64,000 nucleotides of DNA from Escherichia phage vB_EcoM_ESCO32: the sequence record OM386658.1, one strand, 5' to 3'. Position numbers and translations under genes: made by a program. This document shows, in pieces, positions 35,806 to 43,303 of the stretch (positions are counted from its first letter, which is position 1; each line of letters opens with the position of its first letter). Below the pieces are notes generated by a model. That model searched no databases, was not told where the DNA came from, and saw only the letters and a list, made by a program, of their open reading frames with translations.

Positions 35806-36537
35806 ATGAGCGAATTTGTAAACAACACCGCGTTAAACTACCTGCAAACCCTCGAAAGCAATAGTGTAGATTTGATTCTTACTGACCCACCATATGCTAT
35901 TTCTCGTGACACAAATTTTCAATCTGGAGAGCCTACTGGAAAAGATACAGATAGATTCCGTGTATCTTACAACTTTGGGGATTGGGATGTTGTAGATATT
36001 CCTTACTTTAAAGAAGTATTCAAAGAAGCCTATAGGGTGCTTAGAAAAGGTGGTACTTGCATAGTTTGGTATGATATCTGGAAGATCCAGGAGCTACGTG
36101 AAATCCTTGAACCGCTTGGTTTTCGTATGTTCCGTACTATTGAATGGATTAAAACAAACCCTGTACCCATCAACAGTGGTGTTAACTACCTTAGTAACGC
36201 TAAAGAGATGGCTATTGTTTGTGTTAAAGGTTCTAAGCCAACCTTCAATGCCTCCTACCACAAGGGTGTGTTTGAGTATCCTATCTATCAAGGAGCAGAT
36301 CGTTTTCATCCGACACAAAAACACTTGACTTTGTTTTGTGACCTTATTAATATACATACCAACGAAGGAGATGTAGTCTTAGACTTCTTCTCTGGAAGTG
36401 CAACAACACAAGTTGCGGCACTTTTAACAGGTAGAGAATACTTAGGCTGTGAAGCCGATGTAAATATTTTTAAGCAAGCGGAGGAACGACTAAATGAGTA
36501 CACTGAACAGCAAAATCACCCTGAAAGCACTGATTAA
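35806..36537 (+). CDS. DNA methyltransferase (amino-MTase; N6-adenine or N4-cytosine), orphan
   Basis: Motif IV LILTDPPYAISRD (DPPY) near the N-terminus and motif I-like VVLDFFSGSATT near the C-terminus; no adjacent restriction endonuclease gene recognised. Confidence 0.7.
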   Translation: MSEFVNNTALNYLQTLESNSVDLILTDPPYAISRDTNFQSGEPTGKDTDRFRVSYNFGDWDVVDIPYFKEVFKEAYRVLRKGGTCIVWYDIWKIQELREILEPLGFRMFRTIEWIKTNPVPINSGVNYLSNAKEMAIVCVKGSKPTFNASYHKGVFEYPIYQGADRFHPTQKHLTLFCDLINIHTNEGDVVLDFFSGSATTQVAALLTGREYLGCEADVNIFKQAEERLNEYTEQQNHPESTD

Positions 36538-36925
36538 CAACGGTATGAACCTGGACTCTGGTCTGTCTCCAAAGATTTCTATGGCACGACTAGAACAAGT
36601 TACTGGTCTTCGTCAAGTAAGTAATGGCGGTAAGATTATTCGTGATGACGCTGTACCTTTTAATAAATTTCAGATTGAACGTCATTACGATCCTGTAACT
36701 GCAAGTCTCACTGGTGTAACTTTCTCAGGTTATCGTACTGCCGGATACCAACGTAAGGTTGTAGCTGAACGTATTAAAAATCGCAAACAGAAAATTGCAA
36801 CATTGAAGAAACTAGTAGAGAAAGATGTTTCAGAACTTCTTAACCTGTATGAAACTCTTGAGACAAAAGGTGAAGATCATAAACTCTTCTCTAAAGAAGA
36901 TGTGAGCGTAATTTTCACTGATTAA
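36494..36925 (+). CDS. hypothetical protein
   Basis: 143 aa, last plus-strand gene before the strand switch; start overlaps the end of the MTase gene. Confidence 0.4.
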   Translation: MSTLNSKITLKALINNGMNLDSGLSPKISMARLEQVTGLRQVSNGGKIIRDDAVPFNKFQIERHYDPVTASLTGVTFSGYRTAGYQRKVVAERIKNRKQKIATLKKLVEKDVSELLNLYETLETKGEDHKLFSKEDVSVIFTD

Positions 36926-36936
36926 GATAAAAGAAA

Positions 36937-36960
36937 AGGAGCCTATTGGCTCCTTTTTGT
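36937..36960. terminator. bidirectional intrinsic terminator at the convergent strand switch
   Basis: aggagcc-tatt-ggctcct flanked by A-rich sequence upstream and ttttgttt downstream; sits between the converging gene ends at 36925 (+) and 36961 (-). Confidence 0.5.
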
Positions 36961-38847
36961 TTATGTAACATTGACTGTAAATCTGACAAGAGGTGATAAC
37001 ACGTCATTATCAGCATCATAGTGTGCAACATCAAACACTGCTGTACCTGCTGCAAACCCGTATTGTTCAACCTGATCTGCATAAGTAAATGTGTAAGTGT
37101 TAGTATCAAGAGTTTGTTCTGTAAGAATTGCTGCTGTGAGGACGTTTACATTTCGGAAGTAATGTTTGGTATATCCTGCTGGTTCCCAAGAAATAATTGC
37201 ATCTTGGTTAGCTTGTCTTACAGCGGCTCCTCCTGTTGGAACAGACATATCAACCCAAACAGGTGGTGTTGATGTTAAATCTGTACCGTCTGCTGCTGAT
37301 TTAGCAAGTTTTGTAGCTGCTGTTTGATATACAGAAGAAATATAATGGATACGACCATCAATACCTTCTTCATAAACATAACCACTGTAACGTTCAGCAC
37401 CATCTACCCAAGAACCAATGATAACATCATCACGTGCTGTAGAGATGGTTCTTTGTACATTTCTGTACTTCTGCCAATCCACACCATTAACTTCTACACC
37501 ATATAAATAAGAACGTCCTAGGATCTGCCAAACAATTTTTGCTTGAGAAGCAGGAACTATTGTACGCATCTTATCAAAGATAGCTATCGTAGCATCATGG
37601 TAACGTGTAGTGTTACTGTACCTACCTGCAACAGTCGAAGATGCTGATACAGCATCATTTTCACCTTGTCCCCAAATAATTGCTTTAACCTTACTTGCAT
37701 AAGGTGTGACTTTAGTGATAAAGTTAGTTAAGCATGGCCCATCTGCTGTGTTATCCAGATCATACCAGTAGTTGTCTGGTGTACCTGTTCCAGCTTTATC
37801 GTCAGCATATTTATCTGCTGCTGATGATCCAGAAGCTGTATTTAACGGAAGAACTTCAGCATTTGCTAAACCACGTTGCGTAGCATATGCATTACGGGTT
37901 GTTGTGCTACTCATTACTGCTTTATTTGCACCAGATAATTCTGTAAAGTGTGCATTTACGTTATCTTGTCCAGCAAAGACAATAACTTCTTTAATGAACG
38001 AATCATCTGTAGCTATTGAGTTATTAAAGATAACGGCTGCTGCTTTGGTGCTCTTAACGCTAATTTTAAGGTATGTTGGAGCAAACCCATAAAGAGGAAT
38101 AGAGTCAGAGATATCAAAGTAAGCGTAAGTATTCGTGGTTGTTGTAGTCCACTGAACACTATTATCACTTAAATCTAATACTTCTACAGTATAAGTATCA
38201 CCGTCTAGTGGATCAGTTACATCCCAAGCAACACGAACGTCTCCATAACTGTTTGCCACGGCTGTTACATTAGAAATAACAGGAATAGCATTAACACCTA
38301 AATAAGAACTATCAGAGGCCACAACTGTTCCTTGATACGTTGCAGTACAACCTATACGGCAATTGCCATCTTTAAGAGCAGTTATTAATCCTGTAGGGCT
38401 TACAGTAGCTACTTCTGGATCTGTTGTGGTGTATGTAATTACCATATCTGGAAGGTCTTTAGCACCTTCTGGACTGATTGTAGCAACCAACTGTTGAGTA
38501 GTGCCTACATCCATAGCCGATAGACTTTCAGTGTACACACTTAATTCTGAAGCATAACCACCAGATTGATCAGTTAAGACAGCACCTAAATTATTTTTAG
38601 CTGTCATTATTGCATCAAAACCACCTTCAGCAACAAACTCCATCATACCATTATTATCTATAACCATTTTGGTATTATCTGAAGATGAAAAAGCTATATC
38701 AAATAACGCACCATCTTCGGGTGTAACTGTATATGTCAGTTGTTTTTTACTACCAACTATTGCAATGCCAATAGAGGAAGTGGTTATAGATGTAGCTGTT
38801 ACTACTGAAGCTGATGTTGTTGACATAAATAAAGGAATAGGATACAT
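36961..38847 (-). CDS. tail fibre/decoration protein with two Big_2-like Ig domains and an SGNH/sialate-O-acetylesterase-like (DUF303-like) domain
   Basis: Two Big_2-like segments (IGIAIVGSKKQLTYTVTPEDG...; MDVGTTQQLVATISPEG...TTTDPEVATVSPTGLITALKDGNCRIGCTAT); esterase-like VFAGQDNV and IIWGQGENDA (compare GQSNM and WxQGExD). Confidence 0.45.
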   Translation of the reverse strand: MYPIPLFMSTTSASVVTATSITTSSIGIAIVGSKKQLTYTVTPEDGALFDIAFSSSDNTKMVIDNNGMMEFVAEGGFDAIMTAKNNLGAVLTDQSGGYASELSVYTESLSAMDVGTTQQLVATISPEGAKDLPDMVITYTTTDPEVATVSPTGLITALKDGNCRIGCTATYQGTVVASDSSYLGVNAIPVISNVTAVANSYGDVRVAWDVTDPLDGDTYTVEVLDLSDNSVQWTTTTTNTYAYFDISDSIPLYGFAPTYLKISVKSTKAAAVIFNNSIATDDSFIKEVIVFAGQDNVNAHFTELSGANKAVMSSTTTRNAYATQRGLANAEVLPLNTASGSSAADKYADDKAGTGTPDNYWYDLDNTADGPCLTNFITKVTPYASKVKAIIWGQGENDAVSASSTVAGRYSNTTRYHDATIAIFDKMRTIVPASQAKIVWQILGRSYLYGVEVNGVDWQKYRNVQRTISTARDDVIIGSWVDGAERYSGYVYEEGIDGRIHYISSVYQTAATKLAKSAADGTDLTSTPPVWVDMSVPTGGAAVRQANQDAIISWEPAGYTKHYFRNVNVLTAAILTEQTLDTNTYTFTYADQVEQYGFAAGTAVFDVAHYDADNDVLSPLVRFTVNVT

Positions 38848-38886: not shown

Positions 38887-40848
38887 TTATGTGCGTTTAG
38901 CAACAATAGCATCCACGTAATCACCAACACCACAATATGTTAGTTGTAGTATTGTTACTCCGTTAGGATCTGTATTAATATCACTAGAACCAATTACTTT
39001 ATAAGATGGATCTAAAGTAACAGTACGACCTCCAGTGGCATCTTGGATAAGATAAACTATTGCAGAGAATGGTTTAGGTTTTGTGCTATCTTCGACACCA
39101 GGCCATGCTTTTATAGTAGAGTTACCAGTAAGATTCAACACATTCATGTTATGTGTTCCTGGAGGTGTCCAGTCACCTGTAACAGAGTTGTTGGTATATG
39201 CTGTAACCTCTATAAAATTAGTTGTTACTTTTGTTGGAACTATATCTTGACCATCTACAGAACTGGTGAGTTCTTCCCATGCTCCATCTTTACGAGCATA
39301 GATCTTACCGTCACTAGGTGCATCTGTGATGCTAGGTAGTGTACCTTGAGAAGTCCAGACAGTTGCAGATGTTTTTAAGAACACCTCGCCAGTGGAGATA
39401 TTAAAGGCATAATCACCTTGTTTACCATCACTAGAGATTGGATCTGTTGTTTTAACAATCCAAGTTGCACCGTCTGTACCGTTAGTACCAGCGTCACCTT
39501 TTTCACCCTTATCACCTTTCAAACTACCCATATCTACATATTCAGCAGTTTGAGTTTGTTCGTCATAGGTGTAAATGTAAAGATGGCCTGTATCTTCCGT
39601 CAGATAAGCGTCACCGTAATTGGCTGTAGGAGGAAGTGCACTTGCAGACGCAACGTGTCCTTTTGCAGTGATTGGAGTACCAGCTAAACGACCAACATTT
39701 GTCCACTCTGTGGCTCCTTGCAACCAGACCCAAAGTTCATTATTGATCAGATAACCATCACCATCTTCTCCAGTTTGTGGTAGTTCAGAAGTGCTAGTCA
39801 GAATATCAATAATAGTCAACCCTGCGCCAGTTGGCCCCGTCAAGCCTTGTATACCCTGCTCACCTTGATCACCCTTGTCTCCCTTATCACCTTTTTCTCC
39901 TTTCAGAGAGGCAATATATTCGTCAATAGTACCAACGTTACCAGCATTTAACCAGACTTGATAAGCAGAATCACCAGTGTTACCCTTATCTCCTTTGTCG
40001 CCTTTATCTCCTTTTGGCCCCACTATAGCGCCCATATTGATCCATTCTACACCGTTTGACACGTATAGATATGTACCAATACTCCATGCTTGAGATGTGT
40101 TTCCAGGAGATGCAGAAGGAAGATCTGAAACAGAGTTAGCTGCACCTTGGTAATCAAAACCATTAGCATTATTACCTGGTACACCTTGTGGCCCCTCTGG
40201 GCCAGGCTCCCCTTTATCACCTTTAATTGAAGCAAGATAATCTAGTTCTGTACCTTGGTTCCCTGCTGCAAGCCAAACTTGATAAGCAGATTTACCCTCT
40301 GGCCCCTGTGAGTTTACTTTTCTCCAAGCAGTACCATCCCAAGCATACATATTCTCGCCTACAATCCATGCATCTCCTGCATTGTTTCCAGTTGTAGGTA
40401 ATTGGTTGGTATTAGATAGTGTCCCTAGTAGCTTTAATGGAGCACCTGGATCACCTTTTAAAGAAGCCAACCACTGTGTCTCAGTACCTTGGAAACCATT
40501 GTCTACGGCAATCTGGTAAGCTGATTTACCAGCTTCTGGGATGGATTCTCTAAGATCTTCAATTTCAGCTTCAATAGCATCTAATTCTGATTCTATTTGA
40601 GCAATGTCATCTGCATTACCCACATTTTTCCAAGCTGTATCTGAAATCCCTCCAGTAGATGTAGGAGTAGAGTTAGCAGGTACAACTTTAGGTAGAGAAC
40701 CTTTCCACTGATAGTAGTTACCGTCAGCTTCAAAGAGCAATGCTTCACGAGCATCTCTTAAGGTAAAACCACTTGCAAAACTTCTACGCTTTCTATAGCG
40801 AGACTCTACCATGTCTGCAATGGCACTATTTGGACGTGTTAAAATCAC
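38887..40848 (-). CDS. tail fibre protein with collagen-like Gly-X-Y repeats
   Basis: GDKGDKGDKGNTGDS; GEKGDKGDKGDQGEQGIQGLTGPTG; GDKGEPGPEGPQGVPG; GDKGEKGDAGTNGTDG; interleaved with a repeated SAYQ(V/I)W(L)..G..GT...Y(L)AS(L)KG module. GTG start after aaaaggag. Confidence 0.55.
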   Translation of the reverse strand: MILTRPNSAIADMVESRYRKRRSFASGFTLRDAREALLFEADGNYYQWKGSLPKVVPANSTPTSTGGISDTAWKNVGNADDIAQIESELDAIEAEIEDLRESIPEAGKSAYQIAVDNGFQGTETQWLASLKGDPGAPLKLLGTLSNTNQLPTTGNNAGDAWIVGENMYAWDGTAWRKVNSQGPEGKSAYQVWLAAGNQGTELDYLASIKGDKGEPGPEGPQGVPGNNANGFDYQGAANSVSDLPSASPGNTSQAWSIGTYLYVSNGVEWINMGAIVGPKGDKGDKGDKGNTGDSAYQVWLNAGNVGTIDEYIASLKGEKGDKGDKGDQGEQGIQGLTGPTGAGLTIIDILTSTSELPQTGEDGDGYLINNELWVWLQGATEWTNVGRLAGTPITAKGHVASASALPPTANYGDAYLTEDTGHLYIYTYDEQTQTAEYVDMGSLKGDKGEKGDAGTNGTDGATWIVKTTDPISSDGKQGDYAFNISTGEVFLKTSATVWTSQGTLPSITDAPSDGKIYARKDGAWEELTSSVDGQDIVPTKVTTNFIEVTAYTNNSVTGDWTPPGTHNMNVLNLTGNSTIKAWPGVEDSTKPKPFSAIVYLIQDATGGRTVTLDPSYKVIGSSDINTDPNGVTILQLTYCGVGDYVDAIVAKRT

Positions 40849-40866
40849 TTTACTACTCCTTTTATA

Positions 40867-40884
40867 AAGGGGCTTTCGCCCCTT
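40867..40884 (-). terminator. terminator-like hairpin
   Basis: aaggggc-tttc-gcccctt between the tailspike stop and the next fibre gene start. Confidence 0.35.
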
Positions 40885-40888
40885 TTAA

Positions 40889-43303
40889 TTAAGCATTATT
40901 GACAGTAACAAAAGTAACAGGGTTCAGAGCTTTAATTTTTGTATTCTCTGCTGTAGGTGTTACAATTGGATCTGCAATATCTATTGTGTACAAACTATTT
41001 GTCACATATGTAGCACGTGCTATAGTTGTCACAAGATCGCCGCCATTTACACCTGCACCTGGAATAACAATCTTAGTACCTGCTGCTTTAGCGTAGCCAT
41101 TACTAGCCCAGTTTAAAGCATTAGACTGTAGATAGGTTTGACCTGTAACAGTTGCTTTTATTTTCTCATTATCACTAAAGAAAGCACCACCTGCTGTAAC
41201 AACGTGTTTTTTACCGCTTGCACAATGAATAACTGTTCCAGTAGGGAAGTCACGCCCACCTGGGAATTCATCATAAGCTGTAAAATATTGTTCAGAAATA
41301 GTAGTTAAAACTGGCCCACGATGACCTGTACCATCAACAGCAGTTGGAACACCAAAGTTATTTCCAACCTGATCGCAACGATCAGTGTAGATTTTAGCAA
41401 AAGAAACTGTTATTTCATCTCCGCTAAGTGCTGTACATCCTACCCACTTCATATACGTGAATTGGCTGCGAGTATAGAAACCGCCACCACTTCCTTCTCC
41501 GCTTCCATGTTGACCAATAAAGTCAATGCTACGGCAACGAATGTTATTAAAGGTAGAGCTAGATGGTAGTCCACGCCATTTAAAAACATTACAATTGATG
41601 TTACTAACAATTGTAGAGTTTTCCCAGGCATCTGATCCAGCCGTTGCAATCTCAATTGAAGATTCTGGAATATCCAAATTCTTAATTGTAAAGTTAATTG
41701 GTGGCCCCGCATATCTTCCACTGTTAACACCCCAGTCAATAAAGACCATGCGTGTTGAAACAGACGGATCATTAAGCAGATAACCAGTTAAACCATCAAC
41801 TTCAAAATCTTGGCATCCGTATAATGCAACACCACAAGTAGTTAAACCTGTACCTGTTGAAACTGCTGTGTTAGGATAAACTTCGTTATCACGTATTGTG
41901 AAGTTTTTACCCATTTCAACGTGTAAACATTGACGGCAATTGTAAACCCTATTCCCAACGATACTGAAATTACGTACATATTGTGAATCAGGAACATCAA
42001 CACCATATGGGCCACTACCTGCTACACCAATACCAATACCCCAGTTTGCCCCTTGTCCAGAAGCATCTACGTTAGCAATGTGGTTATTCTCGATAATCAA
42101 ACCTTCAGTGTAGTGTTTTTGAACTACGTTAAGTTCAATAGCATCACCTTTAATATCGTGAATATAGTTGTTAGAGTAACGCCCGTAGGTCATTACTTCT
42201 CCAGTACCTTGTTGCAGGATCGCATATTTACAACCATACATTTCGTTGTAACTGAAGTCCAACGTACCTTCACTTGTCATTGCTTGCATTAAGAATGCTG
42301 CTGTAGATGTTGCGTTGGAGAAGATATTACGATAGAATCGGCAATCACCACCTAACATCTTAACATAACATTTTTCAAAGCGAACGTTTTCCATCCAACA
42401 AGACACAGTAGAAATCATTGTTCCACCGTTACCAGTGAATGTACCACCATACCAACGAATACCAGACATAGCAATTGAGCTTGTGAATCTATAATTCTTA
42501 TCTGCACGTACTTGAATGTTATTCGTGTTAGCGAAAGTAATGGTTTTTAAAATTGCTTGAGTATCATCGGTAACTCCATCACCAATTGCACCAAACTGCT
42601 CAGGCGTTACAAAGTATTGAGCTTGTAAGAGGTTGCCTCCAGATGGAAGACCAACCATTGCTGCACCAGTGGTGGATGACAAAAGGTTTTTCTCTACGTA
42701 AGAAGTAGAGGCTGTTGTTTTACCAATAAAAGCAAACAATTTGTTAGGTAGACCAGTAGACGGATCTAAACCTAGTGGTTCTGCCAGAATAATTTTACTA
42801 TCTTTGATAGTAAATGCTTCACCTTGAATCTGAATTACACCGTTAATGGTGACAATAGCATTATCAAAGATATAAGGAGGACTGATTTCTGTTTCATATC
42901 CTGTAGCACCTTTAAAATACCAAGGATACACATCTGAAGCTAACTGTTCAGTTTTAAGAGCGTACAGAGTCCAGTTACTATCTCCTACAGGTGTTCCCTG
43001 CATAGGTACAGGGTTCGCAGTAGTGGCAGATGGGGCATAATAGTACCCACTCAAGATACCGTTTTCAAAATAACGTAACTGGTTAAATACAGTTTCAGTT
43101 GATCCTGCTGACCAAGCAACAGGACTCTTAAAGAAGAAGTTATCAACAAGTGCTTTACGCAGTGTAGGTATTAAACCTGTTTCGGTTTCTACAGTTGCTG
43201 TAGCATCTCCATTAATAACATCATGCATCTGGTTAGACGAGAATATAACCAGATCAACACCTTGTTCTAGTGTCGTAGCAGGATATGTTGGAAAATTCGC
43301 CAT
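40889..43303 (-). CDS. tailspike protein with pectate-lyase-like right-handed beta-helix (putative polysaccharide depolymerase)
   Basis: QFGAIGDGVTDDTQAI is the classic N-terminal signature of pectate-lyase-superfamily tailspikes; 804 aa; downstream repetitive beta-strand-rich sequence. Confidence 0.55.
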   Translation of the reverse strand: MANFPTYPATTLEQGVDLVIFSSNQMHDVINGDATATVETETGLIPTLRKALVDNFFFKSPVAWSAGSTETVFNQLRYFENGILSGYYYAPSATTANPVPMQGTPVGDSNWTLYALKTEQLASDVYPWYFKGATGYETEISPPYIFDNAIVTINGVIQIQGEAFTIKDSKIILAEPLGLDPSTGLPNKLFAFIGKTTASTSYVEKNLLSSTTGAAMVGLPSGGNLLQAQYFVTPEQFGAIGDGVTDDTQAILKTITFANTNNIQVRADKNYRFTSSIAMSGIRWYGGTFTGNGGTMISTVSCWMENVRFEKCYVKMLGGDCRFYRNIFSNATSTAAFLMQAMTSEGTLDFSYNEMYGCKYAILQQGTGEVMTYGRYSNNYIHDIKGDAIELNVVQKHYTEGLIIENNHIANVDASGQGANWGIGIGVAGSGPYGVDVPDSQYVRNFSIVGNRVYNCRQCLHVEMGKNFTIRDNEVYPNTAVSTGTGLTTCGVALYGCQDFEVDGLTGYLLNDPSVSTRMVFIDWGVNSGRYAGPPINFTIKNLDIPESSIEIATAGSDAWENSTIVSNINCNVFKWRGLPSSSTFNNIRCRSIDFIGQHGSGEGSGGGFYTRSQFTYMKWVGCTALSGDEITVSFAKIYTDRCDQVGNNFGVPTAVDGTGHRGPVLTTISEQYFTAYDEFPGGRDFPTGTVIHCASGKKHVVTAGGAFFSDNEKIKATVTGQTYLQSNALNWASNGYAKAAGTKIVIPGAGVNGGDLVTTIARATYVTNSLYTIDIADPIVTPTAENTKIKALNPVTFVTVNNA

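Follow-up and report, generated by a model that had tools for sequence, protein, structure and literature searches.

In Escherichia phage vB_EcoM_ESCO32, a myophage of phi92 type (Justusliebigvirus), one gene very probably specifies the conserved collagen-like side fibre, with a segmented trimeric shaft whose number of modules is fixed. The window analysed is a stretch of 64,000 nucleotides (sequence record OM386658.1), and we document here the domain identities, repeat statistics and pattern of variation of this gene, together with the secondary structure of each module in a monomer model. A sequence-only reading had described a collagen-like tail fibre in which Gly-X-Y runs alternate with a recurring SAYQ module, and had proposed these repeats as a likely site of length variation.

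Gene identity and genomic setting

The repeat-rich region coincides exactly with one entry of the list of open reading frames. It is preceded by a ribosome-binding site, and the same AGGAG is annotated for gp151 in the phi92 record.

38887..40848, minus strand: whole gene, collagen-like fibre protein (GTG start, 653 aa, stop codon included; from the ORF list)
40856..40860, minus strand: ribosome-binding site AGGAG, 8 nt upstream of the GTG start (read from the sequence)

The gene is already known as the collagen-like tail fibre gp151 of phi92-type E. coli phages, previously annotated. It is 98.1% identical to phi92 gp151 (CBY99580.1) over 1962/1962 nt; the two are equal in length (1962 nt) and do not differ materially in neighbours (the gp150 colanidase lies upstream) or domain order. 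Nucleotide identity to 55 Justusliebigvirus records is 97-99%. In a profile search, residues 1-653 align with positions 1-656 of phrog_15437 ('tail fiber protein', E=0), and by sequence comparison the gene is an orthologue of gp151 within the phrog_15437 group. Deposited names of orthologues include "tail fiber protein", "lateral tail fiber protein with type I collagen domain" and 'TfpM2'.

The gene sits in a baseplate/tailspike block. Its upstream neighbour, the ORF at 40889-43303, matches phrog_6117 ('colanic acid degradation', E 1.9e-268), and the order of colanidase tailspike followed by collagen-like fibre is identical in phi92, EC.P2, DE16 and ukendt. On the other side lies an esterase-type gene, whose fibre protein product has a weak match of SASA/esterase type. 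The orthology with gp151, the full-length phrog_15437 match, the colanidase neighbour and the Tail_spike_N and Pfam Collagen domains described below all bear out the name of collagen-like tail fibre given to the gene from its letters.

This is an ordinary phage fibre of known kind. As a discovery it carries little weight, being a near-identical copy of an annotated fibre gene in a field where triplet-multiple length differences are already documented; a literature search combining Justusliebigvirus and collagen found no paper. One modest gain of the analysis is that the parts of phi92 gp151 can now be listed residue by residue.

Parts of the fibre protein

From the N to the C terminus the repeated parts follow the order S-B-S-c6-B-c6-S-c9-B-B-c6-B-foldon-knob, where c is a Gly-X-Y run with its number of triplets and S and B are two different modules. 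Both Gly-X-Y runs and SAYQ (S) modules are thus present, but they do not strictly alternate, and the supposed pairing of one SAYQ module with each run fails, as there are three module copies and four runs. The earlier reading missed the second repeated unit, the B module of ~45 residues in five copies, and the foldon-like clamp before the C-terminal knob.

40618..40818, minus strand: attachment domain of Tail_spike_N / TSP1-Gp66 type, residues 11-77 (Pfam PF18668)
40543..40608, minus strand: acidic helix, residues 81-102, probably a short trimeric coiled coil joining anchor and shaft (AF2 helix)
40453..40530, minus strand: S module copy 1, residues 107-132, GKSAYQIAVDNGFQGTETQWLASLKG, helix-loop-helix (HMM 1.5e-18; AF2 helices 110-116 and 123-131)
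40438..40455, minus strand: Gly-X-Y stub of 2 triplets, residues 132-137, GDPGAP (sequence)
40306..40437, minus strand: B module copy 1, residues 138-181, four-strand beta unit (HMM 2.8e-19; z 6.4 against copy 2 and 9.3 against copy 3)
40219..40296, minus strand: S module copy 2, residues 185-210 (alignment, HMM; AF2 helices 188-194 and 201-208)
40168..40221, minus strand: Gly-X-Y run 1, residues 210-227, 6 triplets (sequence; length invariant in all orthologues examined)
40024..40167, minus strand: B module copy 2, residues 228-275 (alignment, HMM, AF2)
39967..40020, minus strand: Gly-X-Y run 2, residues 277-294, 6 triplets, GPKGDKGDKGDKGNTGDS (sequence; 5-11 triplets in orthologues)
39898..39975, minus strand: S module copy 3, residues 292-317 (alignment, HMM, AF2)
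39820..39900, minus strand: Gly-X-Y run 3, residues 317-343, 9 triplets (sequence; 8-10 triplets in orthologues)
39682..39819, minus strand: B module copy 3, residues 344-389 (alignment, HMM, AF2)
39520..39672, minus strand: B module copy 4, residues 393-443, with a longer hairpin insert (alignment, HMM, AF2)
39463..39516, minus strand: Gly-X-Y run 4, residues 445-462, 6 triplets (sequence; the most length-variable, 3-13 triplets)
39340..39462, minus strand: B module copy 5, residues 463-503, the most diverged (HMM 5.9e-08; z 4.0 against copy 3 only)
39256..39339, minus strand: foldon-like beta hairpin, residues 504-531, ...APSDGKIYARKDGAWEEL... (Fibritin_C; AF2 hairpin 516-520/523-527)
38890..39255, minus strand: C-terminal knob, residues 532-653, putatively a beta-sandwich and probably the receptor-binding tip

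The anchor is identified with confidence (Tail_spike_N, PF18668: E 3.4e-21, 75.6 bits against a cut-off of 25). A whole-protein sequence search of the PDB returned matches at this domain only, to 9vvr, 9occ, G7C gp63.1 (4qnl) and CBA120 TSP1/3/4, and no solved structure for shaft or knob. The phi92 record labels the N-terminal domain of gp151 a 'potential capsid binding domain'. The same record gives 'central domain predicted as coiled-coil'; the coiled coil we place at residues 81-102 is presumably trimeric.

The recurring SAYQ module is a real repeat in three copies, although its conserved core spans 26 residues (pattern G-x-S-A-Y-...-S-L-K-G) and not the ~35 first suggested. Pairwise local alignments of the copies give z scores of 9.1-16.3 (9-14 for copy 1 against copies 2 and 3), and 0/500 shuffles reached the observed scores. 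Each copy is modelled as a helix-loop-helix in the AF2 monomer. A PDB profile search with 66 S modules yielded nothing meaningful (best HincII, E 0.46). Assignment of the module to DUF2934 (PF11154) was rejected, since neither the whole protein nor an isolated S module matched this family when E values as high as 10 were admitted. The DUF2934 threshold is passed, however, by relatives that carry many S copies (35-37 bits against 22). Because these matches fall exactly on the S modules, the resemblance is real, if weak.

The B module follows the pattern 'LPxxGxxGDAY..LY.W.G..W..VG', and each copy is modelled as a four-strand unit with a pLDDT of about 85, the strands of copy 1 lying at 139-144, 159-163, 166-170 and 175-178. 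A profile of 58 B modules gave weak matches in the PDB, covering part of the module, to 8rk3 (a DUF2793-type fibre domain, E 1.2e-3) and 8y6v gp184 (E 1.9e-3). Pfam, searched at E up to 10, had no match to isolated B modules and found Fibritin_C alone among the isolated S, B and knob segments; NCBIfam gave only sub-threshold matches to collagen adhesins.

At least four Gly-X-Y runs had been noted, and there are exactly four, of 6, 6, 9 and 6 triplets. Runs of at least five triplets have a mean count of 0.018 in 5000 residue shuffles, in which the longest run reaches 7 triplets, against 9 in the protein. Besides the stub listed above, a second stub of two triplets lies at residues 182-187, and run 3 is marked as a repeat_region in the record of phage alia. 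Pfam Collagen (PF01391) scores 32.5 bits against a gathering threshold of 27.2. The runs contain nine KGD/KGE motifs, with D or E at 15/31 X positions and K at 10/31 Y positions, and proline is scarce (9/93 residues). Such charge pairs stabilise triple helices that lack hydroxyproline. Because of the scarcity of proline, we assume that they confer the stability here, and by analogy with known collagen-like fibres the runs would form a triple helix and the protein a trimer. In the AF2 monomer (mean pLDDT 68, pTM 0.25) the runs have pLDDT values below 50, which is to be expected of a triple helix computed from a single chain.

The foldon-like hairpin passes the Fibritin_C (PF07921) cut-off of 21 as an isolated segment (22.1 bits, profile positions 63-92/93) and falls below it in the whole protein (19.3). 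Its motif APxDGxxYxRxxGxW is conserved in the wider family, and APSDGKIYARKDGAWEEL presumably resembles the core of the T4 fibritin foldon. The knob beyond it is probably the receptor-binding tip.

Length variation among relatives

Comparison of the gene with itself gives significant internal repeats at the protein level, whereas the DNA shows only the 9-nt periodicity of the Gly-X-Y runs. Module copies share 54-65% of their nucleotides. No exact direct repeat in the gene is longer than 14 nt, a length that codon-shuffled controls also reach as their maximum. Tandem Repeats Finder (TRF) reports periods of 9 and 18 at 39863-39903 (run 3) and of 9 at 39494-39519 (run 4). These 9- or 18-nt units are present in 2.1-4.6 copies with 71-90% matches and differ by synonymous codons.

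The module number (S=3, B=5) is constant across Justusliebigvirus and Phapecoctavirus-type orthologues; the latter retain an identical module order at about 60% amino acid identity. The sole natural exception is the metagenomic orthologue P0014, which is without the fifth B module. Sizeable length differences among orthologues consist of whole triplets in runs 2, 3 and 4, and outside the Gly-X-Y runs only loop indels of 1-8 residues occur. In 20 orthologue sequences the Gly-X-Y register of runs 2-4 is unbroken in every length state.

Among 54 full-length genes from close isolates, 46 are 1962 nt long and eight are 1971 nt, with no other length. DNA alignments place the difference in a single Gly-Glu-Lys (GEK) unit of run 4, the site of the only within-genus indel in this set, and the window gene carries the commoner, short allele. 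Sampled metagenome cluster members encode proteins of 653 or 656 aa only.

39499..39507, minus strand: one GGTGAAAAA (Gly-Glu-Lys) unit; 8/54 related records have one extra adjoining 9-nt unit (GGTGAGAAA)

Phage AMO3598, with a short allele, differs by only 5 nt from EC.P2, with a long one, but by 19-45 nt from other short alleles. Read from the sequences, this nesting implies that the unit was gained or lost there a second time, although it could reflect a short gene-conversion patch instead of slippage.

The proposal that the repeats are a likely site of length variation is thus upheld for the triplet counts of runs 2-4 and fails for the SAYQ modules, whose number does not change. Variation in Gly-X-Y length is slow or rare, with two alleles one triplet apart among the close isolates. 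A broader reading would make the modules and runs together a hypervariable, contingency-type locus at which frequent slippage or recombination alters fibre length and switches host range. It could draw on the 9-nt indel, which seems to have arisen twice within the genus, on triplet numbers that vary both between and within sister genera, on an in-frame 486-nt deletion in the EP57 record that removes run 3, B copies 3 and 4 and most of run 4, and on phage ukendt, in which the cassette from S copy 3 through run 3 to B copy 3 has been replaced. We nevertheless judge this reading improbable. The long near-perfect tandem arrays and the many lengths among close isolates that mark slippage-type hypervariable loci were not found, the tandem units present being short and imperfect, and module number is fixed even in the distant orthologues. 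Homologous recombination between modules was rejected as a source of variation because the DNA identity between copies is low. The EP57 junction shows no repeat or microhomology, so the deletion is not evidence of repeat-mediated recombination, and the record (130.7 kb) may be misassembled and the deletion an artefact. A change of host range through triplet changes also appears unlikely from the sequences, since the C-terminal knob is untouched and each triplet shifts the length by about 0.9 nm.

What varies is separable from what is constant: the former is the Gly-X-Y triplet count, chiefly in one run, and the latter the number of modules. This distinction is of use in judging repeat-rich receptor-binding genes of phages.

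Proposed assembly of the fibre, and related systems

In the conserved side fibre that we favour, three chains would be anchored through their N-terminal Tail_spike_N domains, presumably to the branched baseplate fibre complex, and a short coiled coil would lead into the segmented shaft. The shaft would consist of short hydroxyproline-free collagen triple helices with many charge pairs of Lys-Gly-Asp/Glu type, of the 26-residue S modules and of the ~45-residue B modules. The S and B modules, presumably, and the tip-proximal foldon-like hairpin would act as trimerisation and registration knots, nucleating and clamping collagen segments of 2-9 triplets that are each too short to be stable alone, and the C-terminal beta-sandwich knob would bear the binding surface. 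The repeated modules may be old, diverged duplications whose number became fixed in the lineage. Length would be tuned solely as whole 9-nt Gly-X-Y units are added or dropped, for the most part in run 4, and this run would also serve as a joint for exchange of distal parts.

The location and the nature of the shaft can each be read otherwise. The best solved-structure match of the protein is the capsid spike gp52 of phage Pa223 (PDB 9ny6; Foldseek E 1.4e-4, probability 1.0), a match also reported independently for phi92 gp151 (PMC13450770). In the phi92 cryo-EM maps, gp151 is unplaced in the baseplate, and its AlphaFold3 model misfits the density of fibre II (PMC13450770). Together with the capsid-binding label in the phi92 record, these points could suggest that the protein is not a tail fibre and belongs instead to the head, neck or whiskers, as a fibre or a decoration. 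However, tailspikes of CBA120, of G7C and of numerous podo- and siphophages carry the same Tail_spike_N anchor, the baseplate/tailspike block encloses the gene, and thin flexible fibres are probably averaged out in most cryo-EM maps. The Pa223 match, moreover, covers the beta shaft and knob and not the N-terminus that attaches to the capsid. We regard a head or neck location as quite improbable. Still less credence is given to the Gly-X-Y runs as flexible linkers, glycine-rich or of polyproline-II type, that join trimeric beads each folding on its own, a reading with which the low proline content, the shortness of the runs and their low pLDDT would agree. Glycine occupies strictly every third position, and all run indels across orthologues are whole triplets, a constraint that a mere linker would escape. 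The low pLDDT is equally expected of a triple helix modelled as a single chain, and the Pfam Collagen score and the abundant charge pairs also favour a triple helix. CD has shown a triple helix, with a Tm of 42 C, for the Col domain of a prophage fibre that resembles the runs in composition (PMC3368898).

The nearest experimental precedent for a collagen-like side fibre is provided by EPclA and EPclB of EHEC prophages, which are trimeric fibres with Col domains flanked by non-collagen trimerisation domains (Ghosh 2012, PMC3368898). For these proteins the triple helix, and its nucleation and refolding by the flanking domains, were shown experimentally, and Col lengths vary among alleles by multiples of three residues (Ghosh 2012, PMC3368898). 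They differ from the window protein in having one or two long Col domains of tens of triplets, together with PfN, PfC, an Ala/Ser-rich PCoil and Pf2 repeats, whereas the window protein interleaves many short runs with S and B modules behind a Tail_spike_N anchor.

Other known fibres share single elements with it. T4 fibritin (wac) is likewise a segmented trimeric fibre, as the window protein is predicted to be, with a terminal beta-hairpin trimerisation clamp of ~27 residues; its shaft is a coiled coil without collagen, S or B segments. The foldon-like hairpin of the window protein is internal and followed by a knob of 120 residues. Pa223 gp52 is trimeric, its looped beta units forming a triple beta-helix that leads to a C-terminal knob. 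It differs in its length of 294 residues, its lack of collagen runs, its asymmetric capsid-attachment N-terminus and its place as a head decoration; the match has 11% sequence identity, and the extended shape of the monomer model keeps its TM-scores low. The branched complexes of G7C (gp63.1/gp66) and CBA120 (TSP1-4) have the N-terminal docking domain in common with the window protein, and the fibre protein of the esterase-type neighbour gene is reminiscent of G7C gp63.1. Distally these complexes carry beta-helix depolymerases or esterases, in contrast to the collagen-like shaft of the window protein.

Hundreds of phage fibres follow the same grammar of S, B and collagen segments, the number per protein ranging from 0 to 19 for S and from 0 to 12 for B. 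We tentatively suggest, as a possibility that we hold to be more doubtful than the fibre assignment itself, that S and B make up a general, undescribed kit of trimer 'registration knots' that large phages combine freely with short collagen segments, and that run 4 is a dedicated joint for length tuning and tip exchange. If this is true, large phages could build fibres of any length from these three kinds of part. The modelled S and B modules would in addition be natural candidates for short trimerisation or registration domains in engineered hydroxyproline-free collagens.

Joints of this kind have a parallel in Streptococcus thermophilus phages, where collagen-like repeats reportedly flank a variable region of the host-specificity proteins. 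Gly-X-Y repeats in the receptor-binding protein of these phages coincide with joints of recombination or deletion. The proteins concerned are siphophage antireceptors of Gram-positive hosts without S or B modules, and the likeness lies in run 4 of the window gene, which is both the site of the indel and the end of distal homology with Citrobacter phage Tr1 and P0016.

Modular architecture of the fibre protein

The collagen-like fibre is encoded by an open reading frame of 653 codons at window positions 38887..40848 (minus strand), exactly where the sequence-only reading had placed it, with a GTG start and an AGGAG ribosome-binding site 8 nt upstream. Both the gene and this type of fibre have been described before. 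A megablast search of 50,697 phage records returned 55 that cover it at 96-99% identity, all from phi92-like Justusliebigvirus, including phi92 gp151 (98.1% identity, equal length). Deposited names are 'tail fiber protein', 'potential tail fiber' and 'lateral tail fiber protein with type I collagen domain', and the phi92 record describes the centre of gp151 as coiled coil and its N terminus as a binding domain. The same record begins the gene at a GTG preceded by AGGAG, unlike the records of AMO3598 and pEC-M2929-1AR.1, which instead use the ATG of codon 13, 36 nt further on.

The protein opens with a Tail_spike_N anchor (E 3.4e-21) and continues as a shaft in which collagen-like Gly-X-Y runs are interspersed with two kinds of folded module, S (the SAYQ module) and B. 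With c6 and c9 denoting runs of six and nine triplets, the order is Tail_spike_N anchor, helix 81-102, S, B, S, c6, B, c6, S, c9, B, B, c6, B, foldon-like hairpin and C-terminal beta-sandwich knob.

Features of the fibre protein (residue numbers; gene on the minus strand)
107-132, 185-210 and 292-317: S modules S1-S3, core of 26 residues
210-227: Gly-X-Y run 1, 6 triplets
277-294: Gly-X-Y run 2, 6 triplets
317-343: Gly-X-Y run 3, 9 triplets
445-462 (window 39463-39516): Gly-X-Y run 4, 6 triplets
504-531: foldon-like hairpin (Fibritin_C, cut-off 21 bits)

Four long Gly-X-Y runs are present, in keeping with the at least four claimed from sequence alone, whereas shuffled versions of the protein contain a mean of 0.018 runs of at least five triplets (5000 shuffles); two 2-triplet stubs accompany them, and the Pfam Collagen score exceeds its threshold. 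The recurring SAYQ module is likewise real (pairwise z 9-16, with 0 of 500 shuffles matching the observed scores), although it occurs in three copies and its core is shorter than the roughly 35 residues proposed. That observation was correct except in the number of copies and the size of the module, yet it was incomplete, having overlooked both the B module, a unit of ∼45 residues present in five copies with the pattern LPxxGxxGDAY..LY.W.G..W..VG, and the foldon-like hairpin, which scores 22.1 bits as an isolated segment and 19.3 bits within the whole protein.

Pattern of length variation

The repeats had been proposed as a site of length variation by slippage or recombination, and this holds for the number of Gly-X-Y triplets but not for the SAYQ modules. 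The S copies are only 54-65% identical in DNA, and no exact direct repeat in the gene exceeds 14 nt, which is also the maximum of codon-shuffled controls. These values identify the modules as ancient duplications, unsuited as substrates for either slippage or homologous recombination. The tandem units that Tandem Repeats Finder detects all lie inside Gly-X-Y runs; they are 9 or 18 nt long, imperfect, and present in only 2-4.6 copies.

Among close isolates the comparison of repeat number yields two alleles. The gene measures 1962 nt in 46 of 54 full-length copies and 1971 nt in the other eight, which derive from six phages (in one further record the gene is cut in two by the end of the record), and members sampled from the 90% protein cluster have 653 or 656 amino acids only. 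The alleles differ by one 9-nt unit (GGTGAGAAA, Gly-Glu-Lys) beside GGTGAAAAA in run 4. The short allele of AMO3598 differs from the long allele of EC.P2 at 5 positions and from other short alleles at 19-45, implying that the run 4 site changed at least twice or lies in a conversion patch.

Between genera (20 orthologue sequences, ∼60% identity), run 1 is invariant at six triplets, while run 2 ranges from 5 to 11, run 3 from 8 to 10 and run 4 from 3 to 13, without exception in whole triplets. Module counts stay at three S and five B, save for one metagenomic orthologue that lacks B5, and the B3/B4 loops and knob carry small indels of 1-8 residues. Variation in triplet count is slow and small, and the change of host range proposed from the sequence is unlikely to follow from it.

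Rarer events affect larger segments. Phage vB_EcoM_EP57 (L016, 1500-3038) has lost 486 nt in frame, from the end of S3 through run 3, B3 and B4 to most of run 4. The deletion junction shows no microhomology and may be an artefact of assembly, as the genome record comprises only 130.7 kb. Phages ukendt (L004, 3500-5524) and phAPEC8 (L006, 1000-3024) share 97-100% DNA identity except at residues ∼295-390 (S3, run 3 and B3), where identity falls to 50-84%, indicating that a diverged cassette was swapped into the shaft of ukendt. Citrobacter phage Tr1 (P0015) and a second homologue (P0016) are 50-90% identical to the window protein up to run 4 and 13-20% beyond it, and appear to have different distal parts joined at this run (∼445-462). 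Across 120 homologues, proteins contain 0-19 S and 0-12 B modules in many orders.

Structural relatives and a proposed trimeric fibre

An AlphaFold2 monomer model built with 31 homologues (mean pLDDT 68) renders each S module as a helix-loop-helix and each B module as a four-strand beta unit (pLDDT ∼85), and includes a hairpin at 516-527 and the C-terminal beta-sandwich knob. The Gly-X-Y runs fall below pLDDT 50, which is the expected outcome for a triple helix represented by one chain. Among solved structures, the best match is to the trimeric capsid spike of Pseudomonas phage Pa223 (9ny6, E 1.4e-4), a triple beta-helix of looped units with a C-terminal knob. The authors of a 2026 phi92 cryo-EM study also reported this likeness, and found that gp151 fitted no fibre density (PMC13450770); which fibre gene makes which fibre in this phage group is described elsewhere as open (PMC8594841).

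Other PDB matches are restricted to the N-terminal docking domain, which is common to the branched spikes of CBA120 and G7C. A PDB profile search found no solved relative of S by sequence and only weak matches to B, and attempts at fold assignment gave none for the knob. A search of viral structure models returned mainly similarly built fibres of phages and giant viruses. In two many-copy relatives, Pfam DUF2934 (PF11154) matches sit exactly on S modules (P0026, residues 127-152; P0029, residues 739-764), and the two may be the same helix-loop-helix motif.

Beyond the domain identities, repeat statistics, variation pattern and secondary structure of each module established here, we infer an assembly in which three chains would dock through Tail_spike_N onto the branched fibre complex of the baseplate. 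Collagen segments of 2-9 triplets would be too short for stability on their own, and S, B and the foldon-like hairpin would serve as their trimerisation and registration knots. Proline is scarce in these segments (9 of 93 residues), but they are rich in Lys-Gly-Asp/Glu pairs (nine), with acidic residues at X and Lys at Y. Such pairs stabilise triple helices that are free of hydroxyproline. At 0.286 nm per residue, 93 triple-helical residues would span ∼27 nm, and one triplet ∼0.9 nm.

The prophage fibre proteins EPclA and EPclB provide an experimental precedent: their Col domains are triple-helical, flanking domains trimerise and renucleate Col, and the number of residues differs between alleles in steps of three (PMC3368898). 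What is mildly new here is limited to the idea that S and B may form a widespread, structurally uncharacterised kit of collagen-registering knots.

Binding probably takes place through the knob as the tip of the fibre. Its residues 557-652 (window 38890-39180, minus strand) share ∼50% identity with fibre tips of E. coli phages of ∼136-139 kb (B9-1, isim, HdK5 and nimi) and ∼40% with a Yersinia phage fHe-Yen9-04 protein that bears an autotransporter annotation. These matches suggest a putative binding domain common to, and exchanged between, phage groups.

Genomic surroundings

The neighbours of the fibre gene are conserved. Upstream lies a colanidase tailspike gene (phrog_6117, E 1.9e-268), and between its stop codon (40889) and the fibre ribosome-binding site is a GGGGC-GAAA-GCCCC hairpin followed by TTTAT (40869-40882, minus strand), which resembles a terminator or a hairpin that stabilises RNA at the junction of the two genes. 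The gene downstream (36961-38847, minus strand) encodes a tail protein of 628 amino acids with Big_2 and a weak SASA/esterase-like match. In EC.P2 the first 628 residues of a 939-aa protein match it at 95% identity, so the window phage lacks the C-terminal ∼311 residues; phi92 carries a pair of shorter genes at this position (gp152 and gp153), and the Phapecoctavirus version has 890 aa.

Four records deposited as Campylobacter jejuni phages (MG065639, MG065645, MG065656 and MG065689) match E. coli phi92-like phages in genome size and, over the fibre gene, at 97.8% identity; their host label looks doubtful. Cumulative GC skew peaks at window ∼36000-37000, coinciding with the change from plus-strand genes (to 36925) to the minus-strand tail-fibre block.
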